Below are positions 1,089-12,430 of a DNA stretch of 12,430 nucleotides, piece by piece (the first letter of the stretch is position 1; every line of letters starts with the position of its first letter). Below the pieces are notes generated by a model that was not told the origin of the DNA, did no database searches, and saw only the letters and a list, made by a program, of their open reading frames with translations. This DNA is from a virus, in IMG/VR virus record IMGVR_UViG_3300045988_027468; one strand, written 5' to 3'. The translations under genes and the position numbers were made by a program.

Positions 1089-1760
1089 ATGGCTAAACAG
1101 AATCCTATAGGGTTTACAAACAAAACGTTTGCACTTACTAGCAAAGTGCAATTAGATAAGCAAATATTAACTGCTGTAGAATCACGTGGGTATTTGCGTA
1201 AAGAGATTGCACGTGTATTTCAACAGGCAAACAGACGCATTCAGAACGTAGAAAAATCGGGTATAGTTTCGCCAGCTGTTGTTGCACTTAACAAAGGTAA
1301 TATAACAGGTTTCACAAAATTCTCTATGCGTCACAGTTGGGAAGATTTAAAGATTGAGTACGCCAAAGCGGTTTCTTTTTTACGTCAGCCAACATCTACT
1401 GCAACAGGTACGAAAGAATACGCAGAATACTTGAAAAAAGCCTATGATTTGGACGATAAAAGTTTTGCCCTTATGCAAAATAAGTTAATGGGTAAAATTG
1501 CAAGTGTTTCAGATGAGCGTTTTTTGGAACAGTACTTAATGCAATATAAAGATTTTACAGGTGAACTAGAACAGGAATCCAAAGACGTTTCAGACCAAAT
1601 CGAAGATGATGCAGTAAAAATTGAAAATGCCTTAGATGATGCCTTAGAGCAAATAGGCAATGACCCAAACGCAGAAGCATTTATTAATGACGTGGATTCC
1701 TATAATACAGATGAACCGTTAAAGCGTATATTAGACGAATTTAAAAAATTTGGTTTATAA
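1089..1760 (+). CDS. Putative terminal protein (TP) for protein-primed replication (223 aa)
   Basis: Immediately upstream of, and coupled by a TAATG overlap to, the protein-primed DNA polymerase gene, as in phi29 gene 3/gene 2. It has a basic N-terminal region (IARVFQQANRRIQNVEKSG) and a very acidic C-terminal third containing ..DVDSYNTDE.., which resembles the phi29 TP priming-loop context FDSEGN as recalled from memory. Confidence 0.6.
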   Translation: MAKQNPIGFTNKTFALTSKVQLDKQILTAVESRGYLRKEIARVFQQANRRIQNVEKSGIVSPAVVALNKGNITGFTKFSMRHSWEDLKIEYAKAVSFLRQPTSTATGTKEYAEYLKKAYDLDDKSFALMQNKLMGKIASVSDERFLEQYLMQYKDFTGELEQESKDVSDQIEDDAVKIENALDDALEQIGNDPNAEAFINDVDSYNTDEPLKRILDEFKKFGL

Positions 1761-3970
1761 TGAAGAAAATTCCCTTTGCACTACATACCGAAACGTTCAC
1801 GCCGAAAGATATTACAAAAGTTTTGTCTTTGGCTGTGAACGATAAGAATTTTACAGGAAACAATAAGGGTGAAAAGTTCTTAAACGTTCCTGTATCTTTC
1901 GATATAGAAACCACATCTTTTTACCGTGATGTGGACGGAGAAACTTACACCTATGACCGTTATATAAAATTGGGCGGTAAACAAACAAAGATGGAAAAAT
2001 GTTCTTTAATGTACGTTTGGCAATTTGGAATTAACGGTTATTGCATAATAGGTAGAACGTGGGACGAATTTATAACTATGCTGAATGAGATTTCAGACGT
2101 TTTAAACCTGTCTGAAAAGAAACGTATTATTATATACGTTCACAATTTAGCCTATGAGTTCCAATTTTTCAGAGAGTTATTGCAGTGGACAAAGGTTTTT
2201 TCAATAGACCTTAGAAAACCTATTTACGGAATAACTGAAAACGGTATAGAATTTAGATGTAGTTATCTGTTATCGGGTTATTCACTTGCAAAGTTAGGTG
2301 AACAATTACACAAATATAAATGTGAAAAGTTGGTCGGTGATTTAGATTACAGCCTGTTACGTCACAACAAAACACCGTTGACACAAAAAGAAATGGGTTA
2401 TTGTTTGAACGATATTAAAGTAGTTATGTGTTATATACAGGAACTAATCGAACAATATAAAAACATTACCCATTTACCGATAACGAAGACAGGTTTTGTG
2501 CGTAAATATTGCCGTTCTGTGTGTTTTAAGACAACAGACCCCGAAACAGGTAAAACCGTACAAAATTTTAAGTATTTGGATAAAATCCATAACTTAAATA
2601 TAACAGGTATGGAAGAATTTGAAATGCTACAAAGAGCCTTTTCGGGCGGTTTCACGCACGCAAACGCAAAGTACACAGATGAAGTTATAGAAAACGTAGA
2701 TAGTTACGATTTTACAAGTAGTTACCCCTATGTGATGGTAAGCGAAAAATTTCCTATGAGTACAGGCGTTTTCGTTCCTGTTAAGTCTATGAAACAATTT
2801 GAGTTTATGACCTCAAAATATTGCTGTGTCTTTGACGTGGAATTTACGAATATCTTTGCAAAATCAGATAACGAAAATCCAATATCGGTTAGTAAGTGTT
2901 TCGTAAAGGAAAACGTATCAGAAAATAACGGTCGTTTGGTTTGTGCTAGTAAGATATGTATGACAATTACCGAAATAGATTACAGGGTGTTTTCGCAGTT
3001 CTATATGTGGGAATCTGTGAGAATCGGCAAAATGATTTGTTACCGCAAAGAATATTTGCCAACAGAGTTTATTAAATCCATTTTGCACCTGTATGAAATG
3101 AAAACGAAACTAAAAGGGGTTAAGGGCAAAGAAGTTGAGTATTTGAATAGCAAAGAAATGCTGAATAGCTGTTACGGTATGAGTGTGACAAACCCTTTGC
3201 GTGATGAAATCGTCTGTGATGGTGAAATGTGGGACGTTGAGCATTTAACAGGTGAAAAACGCTTAGAAGTACTTAACAAATACAATGATAGCAAAAACCG
3301 TTTTCTTTTCTATCCGTGGGGAATATATGTAACAGCCTATGCACGTAGGAATCTTTTTACAGGTATTCTAGAATGCGGTGACGATTACATCTACAGTGAT
3401 ACAGACAGCGTTAAAATCAAGAACGGCGAAGACCACAAAGAGTATTTCAAAGCCTATAACGATTTGGCACAGCAAAAATTACGTGCAGCCTGTAAGTTTC
3501 ATAAAATACCGTTTGAAAAGGTTGAGCCTGTCACGATTAAGGGAATCGCAAAACCTTTGGGCGTTTGGGATTATGAGGGACGTTACACACGTTTTAAAAC
3601 TTTGGGTGCAAAACGTTATATGGTGCAGGAAAAAGGAGCGTTGACGGTAAACGGTAAAGATTACGATTACAGTTTGACGGTATCGGGTGTTAACAAGAAA
3701 TCTGCTATACCCTATATGTTAGAAACATTTGGGGAAAACGGAATCTTTGACGCTTTTACTAATTACTTAGATATTCCACCGTCTGCAACAGGTAAGAATA
3801 TACACACCTATGTAGATTATGAACAGAGTGGAACTATCACCGATTATTTGGGTACGGTTTCTACTTATGACACAAAAACAGGTGTTCATTTAGAGCCTAC
3901 AGGGTACACTTTGAGCCTGTCAGTACTTTATATAAATTATTTAATGGGAATCAGATTAAAGAAAGAATAA
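1760..3970 (+). CDS. Family B DNA polymerase, protein-primed type (736 aa)
   Basis: Motifs read from the translation: ExoI FDIETTS (D48/E50); ExoII HNLAYEFQF; ExoIII YCLNDIKVV; motif A DSYDFTSSYPYVM; motif B KEMLNSCYGMS; motif C YSDTDSV (nt 3392-3412); KxY LGAKRYMV. Confidence 0.97.
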   Translation: MKKIPFALHTETFTPKDITKVLSLAVNDKNFTGNNKGEKFLNVPVSFDIETTSFYRDVDGETYTYDRYIKLGGKQTKMEKCSLMYVWQFGINGYCIIGRTWDEFITMLNEISDVLNLSEKKRIIIYVHNLAYEFQFFRELLQWTKVFSIDLRKPIYGITENGIEFRCSYLLSGYSLAKLGEQLHKYKCEKLVGDLDYSLLRHNKTPLTQKEMGYCLNDIKVVMCYIQELIEQYKNITHLPITKTGFVRKYCRSVCFKTTDPETGKTVQNFKYLDKIHNLNITGMEEFEMLQRAFSGGFTHANAKYTDEVIENVDSYDFTSSYPYVMVSEKFPMSTGVFVPVKSMKQFEFMTSKYCCVFDVEFTNIFAKSDNENPISVSKCFVKENVSENNGRLVCASKICMTITEIDYRVFSQFYMWESVRIGKMICYRKEYLPTEFIKSILHLYEMKTKLKGVKGKEVEYLNSKEMLNSCYGMSVTNPLRDEIVCDGEMWDVEHLTGEKRLEVLNKYNDSKNRFLFYPWGIYVTAYARRNLFTGILECGDDYIYSDTDSVKIKNGEDHKEYFKAYNDLAQQKLRAACKFHKIPFEKVEPVTIKGIAKPLGVWDYEGRYTRFKTLGAKRYMVQEKGALTVNGKDYDYSLTVSGVNKKSAIPYMLETFGENGIFDAFTNYLDIPPSATGKNIHTYVDYEQSGTITDYLGTVSTYDTKTGVHLEPTGYTLSLSVLYINYLMGIRLKKE

Positions 3971-3971
3971 T

Positions 3972-5108
3972 ATGAAACAGAAGAAAGAAAAGGTGGAAAC
4001 ACCGAAATTTTATTCTTTGTCTAGAATCTTAGCAAAGAACGCAGACTATAACGTTATCTTTGGTGAACGTTCAAATGGTAAGACTTACGCAACCTTACTT
4101 TATGGAATCAAAGAATATTTGCGCACAGGAAAACAAATGGCGTATATTCGTAGATGGCGTGAAGATTTAAGGGGCAAACGTGCAGAAAGTTTGTTTGCAA
4201 ATCACGTTTCAAACGGTGTTATCGAAGAACTTACAAACGGTAAATTTAACGAAGTCTTTTACGTTTCGGGAAAATGGTTTCTTTCAAGCTATGACCCCGA
4301 AACAAAGAAACGTGTACCCGATAACGTACCGTTCTGTTTTGGTTTCTGTCTGTCAGAACAGGAACACGAAAAAAGTAGTAGTTATCCAAACATAACTACT
4401 ATTGTTTTCGATGAGTTTTTGACTAGACGTTATTATTTACCCGATGAATTTATGCTGTATATGAACCTGTTAAGTACTATCATAAGACAACGTAATGATG
4501 TTAAGGTTTTTATGTTGGGTAACACAGTAAACCAATTTTGCCCATATTTTACAGAAATGGGATTGAAACAGGTGCGAGTGATGGAACAGGGAACAATAGA
4601 TATTTATAAATTCGGTGAACACGGTGCAACCGTGGCTGTAGAATATTGTAGTACTATTGTTAAGCAAAAAGCGAGTAACAAATATTTCTGTTTCGATAAT
4701 CAGAACTTGCAGATGATTACGGGCGGTAAATGGGAACTCGCAGTTTATCCCCATTTGCCTGTGAAATATACCCCGAAAGATGTGCTTTTCGTTTTCTACA
4801 TACAGTTTAACGAAATGACATTACAGGGTAATATAATACAGGTTGAAACGTCAGACGGTGTTAATAACTTTATGTATATCCACAATAAGACCACACCGAT
4901 AAAAGACACAGAGAATAGTTTGATTTATTCACTTTGTATGAATGGAAAACCAAACTACAGACGCAAACTACTGTCAACAGCTAGTTACGTTGAATCTCAG
5001 ATAACGAAGTATTTCGCCACCGATAAGGTGTTTTATCAGAATAACGAAATCGGCGAAATTGTGCGAAACTACTTGATGGCTAGTAGCAGAAGTAATATTA
5101 TTACTTAA
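3972..5108 (+). CDS. DNA encapsidation (packaging) ATPase, phi29 gp16-like (378 aa)
   Basis: Walker A GERSNGKT and Walker B TTIVFDEF. Extended resemblance to recalled phi29 gp16 blocks (SYDRILNFVIGARGIGKSY..., YPNVSTIVFDEF..., LSNAVSVVNPYF). Confidence 0.9.
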   Translation: MKQKKEKVETPKFYSLSRILAKNADYNVIFGERSNGKTYATLLYGIKEYLRTGKQMAYIRRWREDLRGKRAESLFANHVSNGVIEELTNGKFNEVFYVSGKWFLSSYDPETKKRVPDNVPFCFGFCLSEQEHEKSSSYPNITTIVFDEFLTRRYYLPDEFMLYMNLLSTIIRQRNDVKVFMLGNTVNQFCPYFTEMGLKQVRVMEQGTIDIYKFGEHGATVAVEYCSTIVKQKASNKYFCFDNQNLQMITGGKWELAVYPHLPVKYTPKDVLFVFYIQFNEMTLQGNIIQVETSDGVNNFMYIHNKTTPIKDTENSLIYSLCMNGKPNYRRKLLSTASYVESQITKYFATDKVFYQNNEIGEIVRNYLMASSRSNIIT

Positions 5109-5162: not shown

Positions 5163-5194
5163 TTTGGTCGTTTCAGATATTTTGTTTATCTTTG
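5163..5194 (+). promoter_or_regulatory. Middle promoter, Bacteroides-type (-33 TTTG 5163-5166, 20-nt spacer, -7 TAtcTTTG 5187-5194), driving the morphogenesis module
   Basis: Same architecture as the terminal promoters and the same flanks (ATTTGGTnGTTTC ... TATCTTTGCA). Confidence 0.6.
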
Positions 5195-5226
5195 CACCAT
5201 TAAATAACAAAGTTAAAATTTGCTAT

Positions 5227-5421
5227 ATGGATATAAACGCAATAGTATCGCTAGTTAGTAACGTGGGGTTTCCTGTTGCTGTCTGTATTGGTCTTTTCTT
5301 TTATATGGAGAAACAGAACGAACGCCACCAACAGGAAACCGATAAGTTAAACGAAACCGTACAGAGTAACACGAAAGTGTTAACAGAACTTTGTACATTA
5401 ATTAAAACACTTGTGAAGTAA
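5227..5421 (+). CDS. Small single-pass membrane protein (64 aa), candidate holin or YvrJ-like protein
   Basis: ATG at 5227 is preferred over the TTG at 5164, which would make the promoter coding. It has one hydrophobic helix (IVSLVSNVGFPVAVCIGLFFYM) followed by a charged, coiled-coil-like tail. Its stop overlaps the portal ATG (TAATG). Confidence 0.6.
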   Translation: MDINAIVSLVSNVGFPVAVCIGLFFYMEKQNERHQQETDKLNETVQSNTKVLTELCTLIKTLVK

Positions 5422-6575
5422 TGAAAAAAGAGAATCTTTATAACTTGTATCAAACACAGGTCAAAGACAAAGATACAGCTTTGGACACGTTCTTTCAGCG
5501 AGTTCTTTGTATGACCTCAAAGATGTTTGTGTACACAGGTTTGCCCGATTCGATTCCACAGATAGAACTTGAAAAGATTCTGCAAACTAGTGGAAATGTA
5601 GGAATCGCAAAAGTTAACGGTGAACTATATGCACTACAGGGAAACAGGGGTGGCAAATGTGATGCCTATTACAGGGGAAAAGATTTTATTGTCGCAAATC
5701 CGTGGCTAGAATTGAATAAAACGTACAATATCGGAAAAGATATTGTTGTTATCAATAACACACCGTTTGCAGATTCGATTCTCCCTGTTATCGGGAAATA
5801 TGGTGTACTTTACACAGACGCAGTTATTACTTTAAATATGACTAGCGTTTTAACTAGAATCACTATGTTAATATCTGCTAGTGATGATAAAACGAAACAG
5901 AGCGCAGAATCTTTCCTCAAAAAGATTCTGGACGGTGATTTCTCGGTAATTGGTGAAAATGCGTTTTTCAAAGGTGTTAATATGCAAACACCACCAACAC
6001 AGAGCAACCAGCAGATAACGCAGTTAATAGAACTTTTGCAGTACTATAAAGCGTCAATGTTTAACGATTTGGGGTTGAACGCAAACTATAATATGAAACG
6101 TGAACGTTTGAACACGCAAGAGGTTTCTATGAATATAGATGCGTTAATGCCTTATGTTGACGCAATGTTAACAGAACGTGTTGAGGGTGTTAAGCGAGTT
6201 AACGAAATGTTCGGTACAGACATTACCGTAACTTTGGGTTCTAGTTGGAAAATTGAACACGAAAATTATTTATCGTTACTCAAATCCACAGAAGAGGGGC
6301 ACGAACACACCGAAACAGAAGATGTTGACCCTGTAACCGAAAACGAAAATGAGGAAACAGATGAAACAGAAGAAACGCAAGAAACAGAAGAAACGGAAAC
6401 AGAAACAGAAGAAACAGAAGAAACAGAAGAAACGGAAACGGAAACAGAAGAAACAGAAGAAACAGAAGAAACGGAAACGGAAACAGAAGAAACAGAAGAA
6501 ACAGAAGAAACGGAAACGGAAACAGAAGAAACAGAAGAAACAGAAGAGGAAAAGGAAAACAAAGATGAAGATTAA
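5421..6575 (+). CDS. Portal (head-tail connector) protein, phi29 gp10-like, with a roughly 90-aa acidic Glu/Thr low-complexity C-terminal extension (384 aa)
   Basis: Block resemblance to recalled phi29 gp10 (LP..I....LEK.L...G.VG; vvINNtpFa; N...K+ER+.T.EVS.N; N+.+G..+.V). The C-terminus is ...ETEETEETEETETE... repeated. Confidence 0.8.
   Translation: MKKENLYNLYQTQVKDKDTALDTFFQRVLCMTSKMFVYTGLPDSIPQIELEKILQTSGNVGIAKVNGELYALQGNRGGKCDAYYRGKDFIVANPWLELNKTYNIGKDIVVINNTPFADSILPVIGKYGVLYTDAVITLNMTSVLTRITMLISASDDKTKQSAESFLKKILDGDFSVIGENAFFKGVNMQTPPTQSNQQITQLIELLQYYKASMFNDLGLNANYNMKRERLNTQEVSMNIDALMPYVDAMLTERVEGVKRVNEMFGTDITVTLGSSWKIEHENYLSLLKSTEEGHEHTETEDVDPVTENENEETDETEETQETEETETETEETEETEETETETEETEETEETETETEETEETEETETETEETEETEEEKENKDED
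6390..6545 (+). repeat. Tandem repeat, 39-bp unit x4 (gaaacggaaacggaaacagaagaaacagaagaaacagaa), inside the portal 3' end
   Basis: Units start at 6390 (1 mismatch), 6429, 6468 and 6507 (three identical). Each is in frame and encodes ETETETEETEETE. They sit within a broader GAA/ACN-rich tract, about 6316-6560. Confidence 0.9.
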
Positions 6576-7134
6576 AGAATTTTTCACGGTGGATAACGGA
6601 TTGTTTGAAACCATTTTTGAGCCTAATTTTCCTGTTTTGTACAAATCGATTTTCGGTGAAGACATACCAAACTTAATCGATATTGATTTGCGTTTCAAAT
6701 ATGGAAATAGGGAACTAGTTGACGCTATCACAAATGAAACTGCGACCGATATTATTAAAGGTATCATTACAGTTAAGTTTGACGAATGGCAAAAACAGAT
6801 TCAAGTGTTTAATAACGAATATGATGTGTTAAACCCTGTCACGTCAAAAGAAACAGTTACAGAAAGTAACACCGTTGACGAAACAGGAAATAATAACACT
6901 ATCGATTCAAGTGTAACTTTTAACAATGGGGAATTTGGCAATGACACGAAACAGCAAAGAGATACCACAGGGAACAGACAAGAGACACGCACGAAGACAA
7001 GTAGTAAAAGCGGTATTCCGTCTAGCGTTCCTGTTAGTGAAATTATTCAAAAAGAAATGAATCTCAGAAAAACCAACTTTAAAACACAGGTGGTAACAGA
7101 GATTGCAAAAGAAATTAGTTTAGATATTTATTAA
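6565..7134 (+). CDS. Hypothetical virion protein (189 aa); candidate lower collar/head-tail adaptor or scaffold
   Basis: ATG 6565 overlaps the portal stop by 11 nt. It lies directly after the portal, as gp11 follows gp10 in phi29. The central T/S/N/G-rich segment is suggestive of an extended beta-hairpin. No motif recognised. Confidence 0.65.
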   Translation: MKIKEFFTVDNGLFETIFEPNFPVLYKSIFGEDIPNLIDIDLRFKYGNRELVDAITNETATDIIKGIITVKFDEWQKQIQVFNNEYDVLNPVTSKETVTESNTVDETGNNNTIDSSVTFNNGEFGNDTKQQRDTTGNRQETRTKTSSKSGIPSSVPVSEIIQKEMNLRKTNFKTQVVTEIAKEISLDIY

Positions 7135-7153: not shown

Positions 7154-8338
7154 ATGGAAGTAAAACAAATTTATACGCTTATTAATAGCGTTTCATCTGA
7201 GGTTTTGGGTAAAACTGATTTGGTACACGAAGACCTCACAGGTATTGTTGATTTGGGTAATGAGGTATTCAATCAGAATGCCGTGGACAATTACGTAAAG
7301 TCACTTGTAAACCATATCGGAAAAGTGGTTTTCGTAAACCGTCCTTATTCGGGCAAAGTTCCATCTGTTTTAATGGATGCGTGGGAATTTGGTTCTGTTT
7401 TGGAAAAGATTTCAGCAGACGTTCCACAGGCTGAGGAAAACGATAGCTGGAATCTCAAAGACGGTACAGAGTACAAACAGGACGTGTTCCACAAGCCAAC
7501 CGTTTCCGCTAAGTTCTTTAACTCAAAGGTAACTTTTGAAGTTCCTGTTTCTATCACAGAACGACAGGTTAAAGAATCTTTCAGCAGTGCTGCACAGTTG
7601 AACGGTTTCCTGTCTATGATTTATAACGCTGTTGAGAAATCAATGACCATCAAGACAGACGCTTTGGTGATGCGTACAATTAACAATATGATTGCGGAAA
7701 CTTTGGACGCAGACAAGACCGCCTTTGGCTTTGTTCCATCTACCAACGAAACAGTAGACTACAGCACAGCTAGCACTGTTAGATGTGTGAATCTGTTGAA
7801 ACTTTACAAAGATAAGACAGGTACAACACTTACAGTGGACGCAGCAATCACAACACCCGACTTTATCAGATTTGCAGCCTACACAATGGGCTTGTACTCA
7901 GACCGTTTGCAGACCATTTCCACCCTGTTTAACGTAGGTGGTAAAGAGCGTTTCACACCAAAGGACGTTTTGCACACAGTTCTTTTGAGTGACTTTGCAG
8001 CCGCTGCAAAAACTTATCTGTATGCCGACACGTTCCACGAGGATAACGTGCTTTTGCCAAAGGCTGAAACCGTGGCAAGTTGGCAAGCTACAGGCAAAGA
8101 TTATGCCTTTGACCACGTTTCAAAGATTGATGTGAAATCTGCTAGCGGTGCTAGTGTTTCTATCGGTGGTGTGTTGGGTGTGATGTTTGACCGTGACGCT
8201 TTGGGTGTTACAAATCTTGACAAGCGAGTAACAACCAACTATAACGCAAAGGCTGAGTTTTTCAATAACTATTACAAGTTCGATGCAGGTTATTTCAATG
8301 ACACAAATGAGAACTTTGTAGTCTTCTTTATCGCCTAA
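7154..8338 (+). CDS. Major capsid protein, phi29 gp8-like (394 aa)
   Basis: Resemblance to recalled phi29 gp8 blocks: DNYVKSLVNHIGKVVF vs NDFITSLVDRIGLVVI; LNGFLSMIYNAVEKS vs FESFVSSIINAIYNS; FFNNYYKF vs YWNYYYHV. Followed by the strongest terminator hairpin in the window. Confidence 0.85.
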   Translation: MEVKQIYTLINSVSSEVLGKTDLVHEDLTGIVDLGNEVFNQNAVDNYVKSLVNHIGKVVFVNRPYSGKVPSVLMDAWEFGSVLEKISADVPQAEENDSWNLKDGTEYKQDVFHKPTVSAKFFNSKVTFEVPVSITERQVKESFSSAAQLNGFLSMIYNAVEKSMTIKTDALVMRTINNMIAETLDADKTAFGFVPSTNETVDYSTASTVRCVNLLKLYKDKTGTTLTVDAAITTPDFIRFAAYTMGLYSDRLQTISTLFNVGGKERFTPKDVLHTVLLSDFAAAAKTYLYADTFHEDNVLLPKAETVASWQATGKDYAFDHVSKIDVKSASGASVSIGGVLGVMFDRDALGVTNLDKRVTTNYNAKAEFFNNYYKFDAGYFNDTNENFVVFFIA

Positions 8339-12015: not shown

Positions 12016-12059
12016 AATCTTATTATTTAACTGTTTGACTTATTTTTTAATTTCTGCTG

Positions 12060-12091
12060 CAAAGATACGACTTTTTCACGAAACTACCAAA
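12060..12091 (-). promoter_or_regulatory. Right inward promoter, Bacteroides-type (minus strand: -33 TTTG = 12088-12091, 20-nt spacer, -7 TAtcTTTG = 12060-12067)
   Basis: The reverse complement reads aatttggtagtttcgtgaaaaagtcgtatctttgcagcag, 34/40 identical to the left promoter 338-377. Confidence 0.6.
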
Positions 12092-12143
12092 TTATTTTTG
12101 TTAATAGTTCTTAAATTAAAAATTTTAATCTTTTTAACAAAAC

Positions 12144-12185
12144 GTTTCACGTGAAACATTACTAACAGGTTGTTCCACGTGAAAC
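12144..12185. promoter_or_regulatory. Mirror pair of CACGTG-core palindromes in ITR-R: GTTTCACGTGAAAC (12144-12157) and GTTcCACGTGAAAC (12172-12185)
   Basis: Read directly. They sit 53 nt upstream of the right promoter -33 element, the same distance as on the left. Confidence 0.5.
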
Positions 12186-12430
12186 AATAATAGACAGGCA
12201 AAAGTTAATAAAAACAGACGAAAAGTTAACAAAATTAGTGATTTTTAACAGTGTTAATTAACAATGTTAAATGTGTTAAATAATCGTAATTGCGGCACAC
12301 AGCAAAAAGCGTGCCAAAGTGTTAGCAACTGTTAAATATGTGTTGGAATGTTAAAATAGGGTGCCTTGTGTACCTAGTTAATAAAAACAGACGAAAAGTT
12401 AACAAAATTAGTGATTTTTAACAGTGTTAA
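12144..12430. repeat. Right inverted terminal repeat (ITR-R), 287 bp
   Basis: Perfect reverse complement of 1-287. The window ends exactly at the repeat end, as expected for a complete linear replicon. Confidence 0.95.

Follow-up and report, generated by a model that had tools for sequence, protein, structure and literature searches.

The portal protein encoded by this phage ends in a 96-residue polyacidic tail composed largely of glutamate and threonine and built around a 39-bp in-frame tandem repeat, and an acidic tail of variable length is, as judged from sequence, a shared trait of the whole branch of miniature (~10–13 kb), protein-primed phages to which it belongs. Portals of tailed phages serve as nucleation point, packaging channel, and exit valve. 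The tail trait apparently has not been described before: the tails go unmentioned in a review of these genomes (PMC11476376) and in the other literature covered, a scope that did not extend to the primary paper on phage Phanie (Pourcel et al. 2024).

The 384-aa ORF at 5421–6575 (+ strand, tail included) of the window, the 12,430-nt stretch of viral DNA analyzed here in full (IMG/VR record IMGVR_UViG_3300045988_027468), is by homology the phi29-type portal (upper collar connector) of a protein-primed, phi29-like phage, in agreement with the preliminary description. In profile searches, PF05352 matched portal aa 14–272 at 51.5 bits (above the curated cut-off of 25.6) and phrog_2038 ("upper collar connector") matched aa 3–282 (E 1.9e-34). 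Against solved chains, the portal family profile matched the GA1 portal (7pv2, E 3.8e-11) and phi29 gp10 (1h5w/1fou, E about 1e-9), aligning body residues 18–272 with gp10 residues 21–280. These family and PDB matches stop at aa 272–282, delimiting a folded body of aa 1–288 (5421–6284, + strand). Elsewhere in the window there are matches to DNA_pol_B_2, Podovirus_Gp16, and Phi29_MCP; the inverted terminal repeats are 377 nt long, and the portal gene is followed by the lower collar gene, as in phi29. The window had no close DNA relative among GenBank phages by megablast, and its relatives were collected by protein searches. An Rfam scan of the window gave no matches and therefore no pRNA, while a promoter and terminator scan around the tail region returned nothing informative. 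A phrog_3148 ("RNA polymerase beta") match to portal aa 251–381 (E 2e-4) was read as compositional. AlphaFold2 models of the portal monomer (pLDDT 37) and of the 189-aa protein encoded downstream were poor because the underlying alignments are shallow.

The C-terminus of gp10 lies inside the procapsid in the phi29 connector (PMC1636484). Since the tail begins where the ordered phi29 connector ends, it would by homology project into the capsid, which supports the earlier statement that portal C-termini face the capsid interior. This location rests on homology with phi29; natural fusions of the portal to the lower collar, which is external, occur rarely and are hard to reconcile with it.

The tail itself (residues 289–384) contains 50 E, 28 T, 5 D, and 2 K (Glu 52%, Thr 29%) and has a net charge of -53 and a pI of 4.05; the net charge of the portal body is -2.4. 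It opens with a conserved segment (aa 289–310, STEEGHEHTETEDVDPVTENEN; 6285–6350, + strand) carrying the motif GH-x-H-T-x-TEDVDP, which is present in all clade tails listed and in which H294, H296, E300, and D301 are invariant across 24 sequences of 74–96% identity. It closes with a conserved EEKENKDED and stop codon (6546–6575, + strand), within which lie the ribosome-binding site and start of the next gene. Between these ends, a unit-by-unit listing places five 39-bp (13-aa) units at 6351–6545 (+ strand), and Tandem Repeats Finder reports 4.7 copies of a 39-bp period at 6363–6547 (97% matches, score 349). Units 6429–6467, 6468–6506, and 6507–6545 are identical and in the portal frame, each encoding ETETETEETEETE; unit 6390–6428 differs from them by one synonymous A/G change, and 6351–6389 is a degenerate copy. 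The tail of roughly 90 Glu/Thr residues, the fourfold 39-bp repeat, and the three identical units at 6429–6545 noted in the preliminary description were thus all confirmed in the assembled sequence, and its suggestion of recent expansion is also supported: the tail is an in-frame expansion with homogenized codon use (GAA 96%; ACT 1% versus 20% in the portal body), as expected from recent copying of units.

The longest exact self-match in the array is 107 nt at an offset of 39, and the exactly periodic stretch measures 146 nt (6402–6547). Because of this stretch, short-read assembly cannot fix the copy number, and the window's count of four units is an assembled value whose exact number is uncertain; the repeat itself is secure, having been assembled independently in about 200 relatives. 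On the + strand the region also falls in a T-free run of 203 nt (6363–6565) that leaves all six frames without a stop codon and is far beyond chance, given that the next longest such run in the window is 38 nt. Because the stretch lacks stops, the ORFs at 6349–7134 (+), 6266–6562 (-), and 6276–6767 (-) are spurious, and the two on the minus strand were set aside as its by-products.

The tail is predicted to be intrinsically disordered, both by the Uversky indices (net charge per residue -0.55; mean hydropathy 0.23; boundary 0.61) and by the absence of predicted secondary structure after portal aa 288 in the low-confidence model. Hydrophobic heptad positions are likewise absent from the composition of its 96 residues.

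An in-frame Glu/Thr tail is kept in 81 of 81 clade genomes and in 120 of 120 close protein clusters, so the prospect of relatives without an acidic extension is clearly not borne out in the clade. Portals in the clade range from 323 to 411 aa (the 323-aa portal being the shortest among the clusters), and the shortest tail among the loci is 49 aa. The portal body, measured up to the anchor, is exactly 870 nt long in 80 of the 81 genomes, and every tail length is a multiple of three, which keeps the frame. Repeat units number from 0 to 5 (mode 2); the window, with 4, is in the top few percent. Copy-number variation had been predicted from the window, and it extends to very close relatives: of 24 genome pairs whose portal-body DNA is 97–99% identical, 20 have tails of unequal length. 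The array therefore qualifies as a variable-number in-frame tandem repeat, and the tail grows and changes size through in-frame duplication or slippage of its 39-bp unit. Other lineages have expanded other units, including TEDVDPVTE (x6), ENENKKTEEEE (x4), and TEDVDPVTETKETKE (x5).

Beyond the clade, none of 215 related loci (tails of 9–195 aa) has a net positive tail, and among 148 distant representatives (35–58% identity), 100 have tails of at least 40 aa, none is net positive, and 88 fall below -0.2 per residue. Acidic tails of 78–145 aa are likewise present in each of the six cultured Gram-negative relatives that were checked, namely astrithr, Phanie, and four more. The preliminary description knew of no portal with such an extension, but acidic tails of 40–326 aa are usual in this branch, the six cultured GenBank phages included. 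Across the loci and representatives together, tail length spans 6 to 326 aa; the tails of different sub-branches share no sequence relationship, yet acidity is retained. The tails of astrithr and Phanie have a T content of 14–16% and are non-repetitive, so acidity is a property of the protein and not of the DNA. Some lineages have tails of only 6–20 aa with no visible replacement, and in two genomes (L096 and L146) an in-frame TAA trims the tail to 20–28 aa, so a long tail is not indispensable. Tail length is uncorrelated with the length of the assembled sequence (r = 0.09), which gives no sign of charge or volume compensation.

The roles first proposed for the tail, as a DNA mimic, a scaffold, or an aid to ejection, are putative ones that it may have. 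We tentatively prefer a reading in which it is translated and forms a disordered polyanionic brush on the portal's inner face, acting by bulk charge, and we consider this possibility nearly an even one. Retention of acidity without sequence conservation supports such a bulk-charge property of the protein. Twelve tails, each with a contour length of ~35 nm, would extend from the portal ring at its wide end, the one inside the capsid, carry about -636 charges in total, and form a swollen polyelectrolyte brush across the inner mouth of the DNA channel. Working through bulk charge and excluded volume and needing no specific fold, the brush would keep packaged DNA from sticking to or jamming the portal crown, would be compressed by incoming DNA, and might also hold off the basic N-terminal half of the putative terminal protein on the DNA end. 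If only charge and solubility matter, tail length would be weakly constrained and slippage would therefore keep yielding alleles of different length, with the window carrying an unusually long one. Several considerations weigh against the brush. The tails add little charge (roughly 2.6% of the 24,860 DNA phosphates), acidity could arise simply because basic or hydrophobic residues are selected against in a compartment full of DNA, and lineages with tails of 6–20 aa or with TAA-cut tails exist.

Alternatively, the tail may be a tolerated low-complexity spacer with no positive function, resized by slippage and purged only of variants harmful next to DNA (basic, hydrophobic, or frameshifted), an explanation that we find credible though unlikely. 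The 6- to 326-aa range of tail lengths, the length changes between genomes 97–99% identical, the homogenized codons, the short-tailed and TAA-truncated lineages, and the lack of correlation with assembled length are all consistent with a spacer. Given how often slippage occurs, however, a neutral array should often collapse, yet no tail has been lost among the 81 genomes or 120 clusters, and long tails reappear in sub-branches whose tail sequences are unrelated as well as in the six checked cultured relatives. Moreover, genomes of this size rank with the smallest known for tailed phages, so ~300 bp (2.3% of the genome) of coding sequence would be costly if useless, and the first ~20 tail residues hold the invariant His and acidic positions.

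It is also conceivable, if doubtful, that the tail is a portal-tethered scaffold or nucleator, such that shell assembly starts on the portal and each capsid receives one portal. The polyanionic tail would then be an assembly organizer that recruits capsid protein as a tethered stand-in for a free scaffold or inner core, a role we regard as improbable to the same degree, and it would afterward stay inside as fixed charge beside the DNA. A scaffold gene is not recognizable here, as the preliminary description had remarked: comparison of the window's ORFs with Pfam and PHROG families gave no scaffold match, and the review of these genomes lists single-stranded DNA-binding protein (SSB), terminal protein, polymerase, capsid protein, collars, and knob, but no scaffold (PMC11476376). 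In the phages of Gram-positive hosts phi29, AD70P2, and CS229P2, whose portal tails are ~20 aa, an ORF of 89–104 aa lies immediately upstream of the capsid gene (charge -10 for phi29 gp7, -18 for CS229P2, and a near-neutral -2.5 for AD70P2). The window has no such upstream ORF, nor any ORF between its lower collar and capsid genes, and its 96-aa tail is close in size to gp7 (98 aa). An 85-aa ORF at 5164–5421 was considered as a scaffold candidate and rejected; it likely starts at Met22, and its hydrophobic stretch resembles a transmembrane helix. A phi29 scaffold mutant yields isometric shells without a connector (PMC11476376), which also counts in favor of a scaffold role. In Astrithrvirus proper, a conserved amphipathic motif resembling a helix-turn-helix closes the tail (28 hits, none farther than 13 residues from the C-terminus); it has the look of a flexibly tethered binding module, and through it these phages would recruit capsid protein.

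That terminal motif, however, is found in none of the 81 clade loci or 120 clusters, and a portal-borne scaffold would be present in 12 copies per particle versus ~150–180 copies of the phi29 scaffold. The existence of TAA-truncated variants and the net acidity of the capsid protein itself (-12) also argue against it. Nor is an extra scaffold-like gene present in the short-tailed relatives, where the ORFs between the portal and capsid genes encode lysozyme-like and small membrane proteins, i.e., lysis genes. If the scaffold explanation held, these tailed phages would dispense with a scaffolding protein by a route not described before.

The gene that follows the portal (6565–7134, + strand; 189 aa) most likely encodes not a scaffold but a short lower collar, the putative counterpart of gp11, and appears to be translationally coupled to the portal gene. 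Its start codon at 6565 and its ribosome-binding site (GAGG/AAGGA) sit within the bases of the portal tail end, with an 11-nt overlap, and the overlap sequence ATGA(A/G)A(T)TTAA is kept in the clade. The lower collar assignment draws on synteny, on the modeled secondary-structure pattern (short helices, a long helix, a beta hairpin, and a C-terminal helix; low confidence, pLDDT 44), on an invariant final Tyr, and on the published review, which names the proteins of these phages "shortened lower collar". The Tyr can be likened to that of gp11, which ends in MLVY and plugs into the connector through it (PMC6542822). A comparison of the 189-aa family with a small gp11 alignment by hhalign gave a probability of 1%.

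The repeat might instead act as nucleic acid, as an unstructured purine-rich leader that boosts lower collar translation, or encode an N-terminal extension of the lower collar in the +1 frame; we consider both very improbable. The RNA from 6360 to 6600 has hardly any structure (-7.2 kcal/mol over 241 nt), no stop interrupts the +1 frame between ATG 6349 and the lower collar gene (Lys/Gln/Arg-rich, ORF 6349–7134), and some gene callers add a basic extension of 13–17 aa in relatives, giving 202–206 aa instead of 189. Open frames are uninformative in a T-free stretch that lacks stops in all six, though, and the +1 ORF was rejected as a by-product of it. The canonical ATG and ribosome-binding site are conserved, gene calls give 189 aa for most of the 120 listed clusters, and the acidic tail is retained in distant relatives whose DNA is neither T-free nor repetitive. 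Least probable of all is an assembly artifact of periodic sequence: the 146-nt periodic stretch exceeds what most short reads bridge with two anchors, the exact portal protein is recorded in no other assembly, and the window's unit number is in the top few percent, but the same architecture, with its 13-aa period and 0–5 units, was assembled independently in 80 IMG/VR genomes and 120 clusters drawn from several sources, so that only the exact copy count, and not the feature, is uncertain.

To our knowledge, interior-facing C-terminal extensions of portals are known only from a few systems, such as the P22 barrel. In a whole and largely uncultured branch of the smallest tailed phages, which takes in phages from gut and wastewater, the helper-dependent Acinetobacter phage Phanie, and phages of Salmonella, Shigella, Enterobacter, Vibrio, and Pectobacterium, the portal bears 12 long, polyacidic, disordered tails that change rapidly in length, and no scaffold gene is recognizable in the genomes. 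With cultured members in tractable hosts, portal incorporation without a scaffold and the effect of fixed charge on packaging or ejection become directly addressable. Should the tail instead prove inert, it would still illustrate clearly how a very compact genome can tolerate a variable-number repeat.

Among known systems, the tail is unlike the DNA-mimic proteins Ocr and ArdA, which are folded, display acidic groups at phosphate spacing, and are delivered to or made in the host; for the tail no fold is predicted and the disorder indices are strong. The P22 portal barrel (~120 residues), from an unrelated portal family, offers a partial parallel in that it likewise projects into the capsid and is unfolded in the procapsid and in solution, and the window portal similarly has a long C-terminal extension (96 aa past the last profile-matched residue). 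The last ~100 residues of the P22 portal (aa 600–725) are unfolded without DNA, the outer face is mildly acidic, and the barrel has been proposed to straighten through DNA repulsion (PMC5290284). In the virion, however, the P22 barrel becomes a helical coiled-coil tube, whereas the window tail shows no helical or heptad propensity, is ~10 times more charged, and is a variable-number repeat. The brush we tentatively prefer would be a disordered counterpart of this mildly acidic, DNA-shaped barrel.

In staphylococcal phage P68, the face of the portal toward the head center is covered by an inner core protein (PMC6795507), and the phi29 prohead contains ~150–180 copies of the acidic (-10), 98-aa gp7, which Xu et al. 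argue is unlikely to leave the head (PMC6542822). The charge of the tails is therefore not without precedent. P68 gp22 and phi29 gp7 are separate products present in 72 to ~180 copies, whereas the tail is covalently fixed to the portal and is therefore limited to 12 copies and cannot be ejected, as P68 gp22 is with the DNA; we infer that it stays with the capsid, bound to a virion protein. With phi29 and GA1, the window shares a homologous portal body, the gp16-type ATPase, the Phi29-type capsid protein, a protein-primed PolB, and inverted terminal repeats, but the C-terminal tail of gp10 is only 24 aa with a net charge of -3 (96 aa and -53 in the window), and phi29 has a separate scaffold gene, gp7, for which the window has no similar small gene beside its capsid gene. 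Further close counterparts are Astrithrvirus and its allies (Salmonella astrithr/Astrid/assan, Acinetobacter Phanie, Pectobacterium DU_PP_III, Shigella vB_SHGBLB0004, Enterobacter Entb_47, and Vibrio K58 g2), whose gene order is the same and whose portal bodies are 40–45% identical to that of the window. The tails of these phages, for the most part free of repeats, abound in Asp, Asn, Gln, Gly, and Ser, and most Astrithrvirus-type tails end in the conserved helical motif, whereas the window's tail is repetitive and dominated by Glu and Thr, and its clade lacks that motif.

The open reading frame at 5421-6575 (plus strand) is firmly assigned by homology to the phi29-type portals: its product matches PF05352 (51.5 bits, residues 14-272) and phrog_2038 (residues 3-282), and in the portal family profile residues 18-272 align with residues 21-280 of phi29 gp10, whose structure is solved; the GA1 portal was matched too. 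Past residue 288 the window portal continues for 96 residues, including 50 Glu, 28 Thr and 5 Asp, giving a net charge of -53 in the tail versus -2.4 in the body. The tail DNA is a tandem repeat with a period of 39 bp (4.7 copies, 97% matches), in which three in-frame units (6429-6467, 6468-6506 and 6507-6545) are identical, each reading ETETETEETEETE, while the unit at 6390-6428 differs from these by one synonymous base and that at 6351-6389 is a degenerate copy; the count of four units is as assembled. The acidic, repeat-encoded Glu/Thr tail of the preliminary description is thus borne out. With a net charge per residue of -0.55 and a hydropathy of 0.23 against a boundary of 0.61, it is, as judged from composition, a strongly disordered polyanion translated in the portal frame. 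Around the array, 203 nt are free of T (the runner-up in the genome is 38 nt), and since such a stretch allows no stop in any frame, it accounts for three mechanical ORFs (6349-7134, plus; 6266-6562 and 6276-6767, minus).

The window is a complete linear genome of 12,430 bp with inverted terminal repeats of 377 nt (1-377 and 12054-12430, 93% complementary), much longer than the 6 nt of phi29; a 55-nt segment inside the repeat is present twice (1-55 and 174-228). An Rfam scan of the entire window found no pRNA and no Rfam family at all. Besides the portal, the genome has genes for a family-B DNA polymerase of the protein-primed kind (1760-3970), a packaging ATPase of the gp16 type (3972-5108), a 189-aa protein (6565-7134, plus) and a major capsid protein of Phi29 type (7154-8338), along with two more structural ORFs and, on the minus strand, an M15 peptidase endolysin. 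The putative terminal protein (ORF2, 1089-1760, 223 aa) is bipolar in charge (residues 1-120: pI 10.0, +9.6; residues 121-223: pI 4.1, -15). A small ORF between ATPase and portal (5227-5421), which probably starts at Met22 to give 64 aa, contains one hydrophobic, membrane-helix-like stretch and is therefore read as a holin-like or other membrane protein; its position is kept in astrithr, Phanie and further relatives. A nucleotide search of GenBank phages with the whole window turned up nothing closely related. The nearest cultured relatives belong to the Astrithrvirus group, phi29-like phages of Gram-negative hosts with genomes of ~11 kb (Salmonella astrithr, Astrid and assan, Acinetobacter Phanie, Pectobacterium DU_PP_III, and Shigella, Enterobacter and Vibrio phages; 40-45% portal identity), and metagenomes are rich in 75-98% identical relatives (3,676 protein matches, 284 IMG/VR stretches).

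Within the clade formed by the window and 80 IMG/VR genomes, tail length varies around fixed elements. An in-frame Glu/Thr-rich tail is present in all 120 of the closest portal protein clusters and in 80/80 of the IMG/VR genomes, with portals of 323-411 aa (median 355, n = 81); the 384 aa of the window portal fall close to the upper end. Since 80 of the 81 genomes have a portal body of precisely 870 nt up to the anchor and tail length is unequal in 20 of 24 genome pairs with 97-99% identical bodies, the tail is an indel hot spot. The 13-aa unit occurs 0-5 times across relatives (mode 2; window 4), confirming the copy-number variation that had been anticipated, and different lineages have expanded different units (TEDVDPVTE x6, ENENKKTEEEE x4, TEDVDPVTETKETKE x5). 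Indels never disrupt the reading frame or break the 11-nt overlap with the next gene's start codon. The variable repeat is flanked by a conserved start, GH-x-H-T-x-TEDVDP (H294, H296, E300 and D301 invariant), and by EEKENKDE(D/N), a conserved end; the codons of the latter also supply the ribosome-binding site and the start for the downstream gene. The GH-x-H-T-x-TED portion (window 6297-6323, residues 293-301), with its two His and Glu/Asp invariant clade-wide, may bind a metal or form a structured element.

Beyond the clade, comparison of portals indicates that tail sequence similarity is lost and acidity is kept. Six of six cultured Gram-negative relatives compared have net-negative tails (78-145 aa), mostly without repeats. 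Tails in 148 representatives of 50%-identity clusters (bodies 35-58% identical) span 6-326 aa (median 75) and are at least 40 aa in 100; none is net positive, and charge per residue is below -0.2 in 88. Likewise, 0/215 IMG/VR loci from three sub-branches have net-positive tails (9-195 aa). Because astrithr and Phanie tail DNA contains 14-16% T, the conserved property is an acidic disordered protein and not T-free repetitive DNA. In contrast to the window portal, those of the Gram-positive relatives phi29, Amedibacillus AD70P2 and Clostridium CS229P2 are merely 299-309 aa, and in phi29 the tail has 24 aa (net charge -3). The preliminary description knew of no comparable portal, a point that these surveys overturn, and named a lack of any acidic extension in relatives as grounds for refutation, an outcome that did not occur; by sequence the tail is a widespread trait of the portal family, not unique to the window.

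Two related ~11-kb genomes (L096, ~6400-6660; L146, ~6440-6700) share the position of an in-frame TAA, which leaves a portal tail of 20-28 aa; beyond it the acidic frame stays open for 54-55 further codons up to the usual end, where it overlaps the gene that follows. A natural truncation, readthrough of the stop codon or an error in sequencing could each account for this. Astrithrvirus-proper tails finish in a conserved amphipathic, helix-turn-helix-like motif of ~30 residues (e.g., IADLQAVIDDPESSDADKQAARELLNEIK), with 28 matches always at most 13 residues from the portal C-terminus (L001 [astrithr], ~5530-5632; L002, L235, L236, L238 and 22 IMG/VR loci). It looks like a binding module on an acidic tether and, among the portal tails compared, is absent from the window clade and a second gut clade.

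The tail is attached where the ordered connector ends by homology to phi29 gp10, an end that in phi29 lies inside the procapsid (PMC1636484), and we infer that the tail is inside the capsid. Our preferred, still tentative reading is a disordered polyanionic brush inside the portal, acting by bulk charge and excluded volume: twelve ~35-nm chains, together bearing about -636 charges, would lie over the inner channel mouth, hold DNA away from the portal crown and perhaps engage ORF2, the putative terminal protein, at its basic N-terminal half (residues 1-120, pI 10). If only charge matters, length would be weakly constrained, with slippage supplying the observed variation. Alternatively, the tail may be a merely tolerated spacer, consistent with the huge span of lengths and the homogenised codons, but this seems rather unlikely given that no clade member has lost it despite frequent slippage, that long tails recur across sub-branches with unrelated tail sequences, and that carrying 300 bp is costly for a genome of 12 kb.

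A portal-tethered nucleator or scaffold is a slightly more doubtful proposition. Family profile searches of the window ORFs gave no scaffold-family match, the gene listing in a review of these phages contains no scaffold protein, phi29 scaffold mutants lose the connector (PMC11476376), and the terminal motif of Astrithrvirus-proper tails would suit such a role; against it count the low number of tail copies (only 12), the lack of that motif in the window clade, the short-tailed lineages in which nothing visible takes the place of the tail, and the two genomes whose TAA truncates it. An ORF of 89-104 aa lies directly 5' of the capsid gene in phi29, AD70P2 and CS229P2; the AD70P2 product is near-neutral, the other two are acidic. 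In AD70P2 (L084, a 12.3-kb genome) this scaffold-position ORF (5938-6207) starts with a tandem (EEQKK) x5, so charged repeats are a recurrent feature of head-assembly proteins among these small phages. Action of the repeat at the RNA level or through an overlapping frame is very improbable, and an assembly artefact of the array more improbable still.

The 189-aa gene 3' of the portal most likely encodes a shortened lower collar protein, not a scaffold. It sits where gp11 follows gp10 in phi29, and a low-confidence model predicts a pattern (short helices, one long helix, a beta hairpin, and a helix at the C-terminus) that fits the published description of gp11 (PMC6542822). Its terminal Tyr is invariant, resembling the MLVY end of phi29 gp11, which inserts into the connector. 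"Shortened lower collar" proteins are reported for these phages (PMC11476376); profile-profile comparison of the 189-aa family with gp11 was negative. In some short-tailed relatives (L211, L218, L207, L221) a lysis cassette, comprising a lysozyme-like 169-aa protein and small membrane proteins, lies between the portal and lower collar genes. In two separate lineages (L239, 548-1942, proteins P0189/P0391; and P0168) portal and lower-collar-like protein form one ORF of 464 or 471 aa, joined through a short acidic linker (~20-30 aa), and the lower collar has no gene of its own before the capsid gene; P0189 and P0391, from two contigs, are one residue apart. If functional, such fusions are difficult to square with an arrangement that places the portal C-terminus in the capsid interior and the lower collar on the exterior.

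Such portal tails go unmentioned in the review of these phages (PMC11476376) and in the structural papers examined. The tail is best filed as a portal C-terminal extension, interior-facing by homology, of a kind already known, here polyacidic, disordered and variable in repeat number, and widespread in this phage branch rather than unique. Its closest precedent is the C-terminal extension forming the P22 portal barrel, which has a mildly acidic outside and is for the most part unfolded when DNA is absent, and for which shaping by DNA repulsion has been proposed (PMC5290284).
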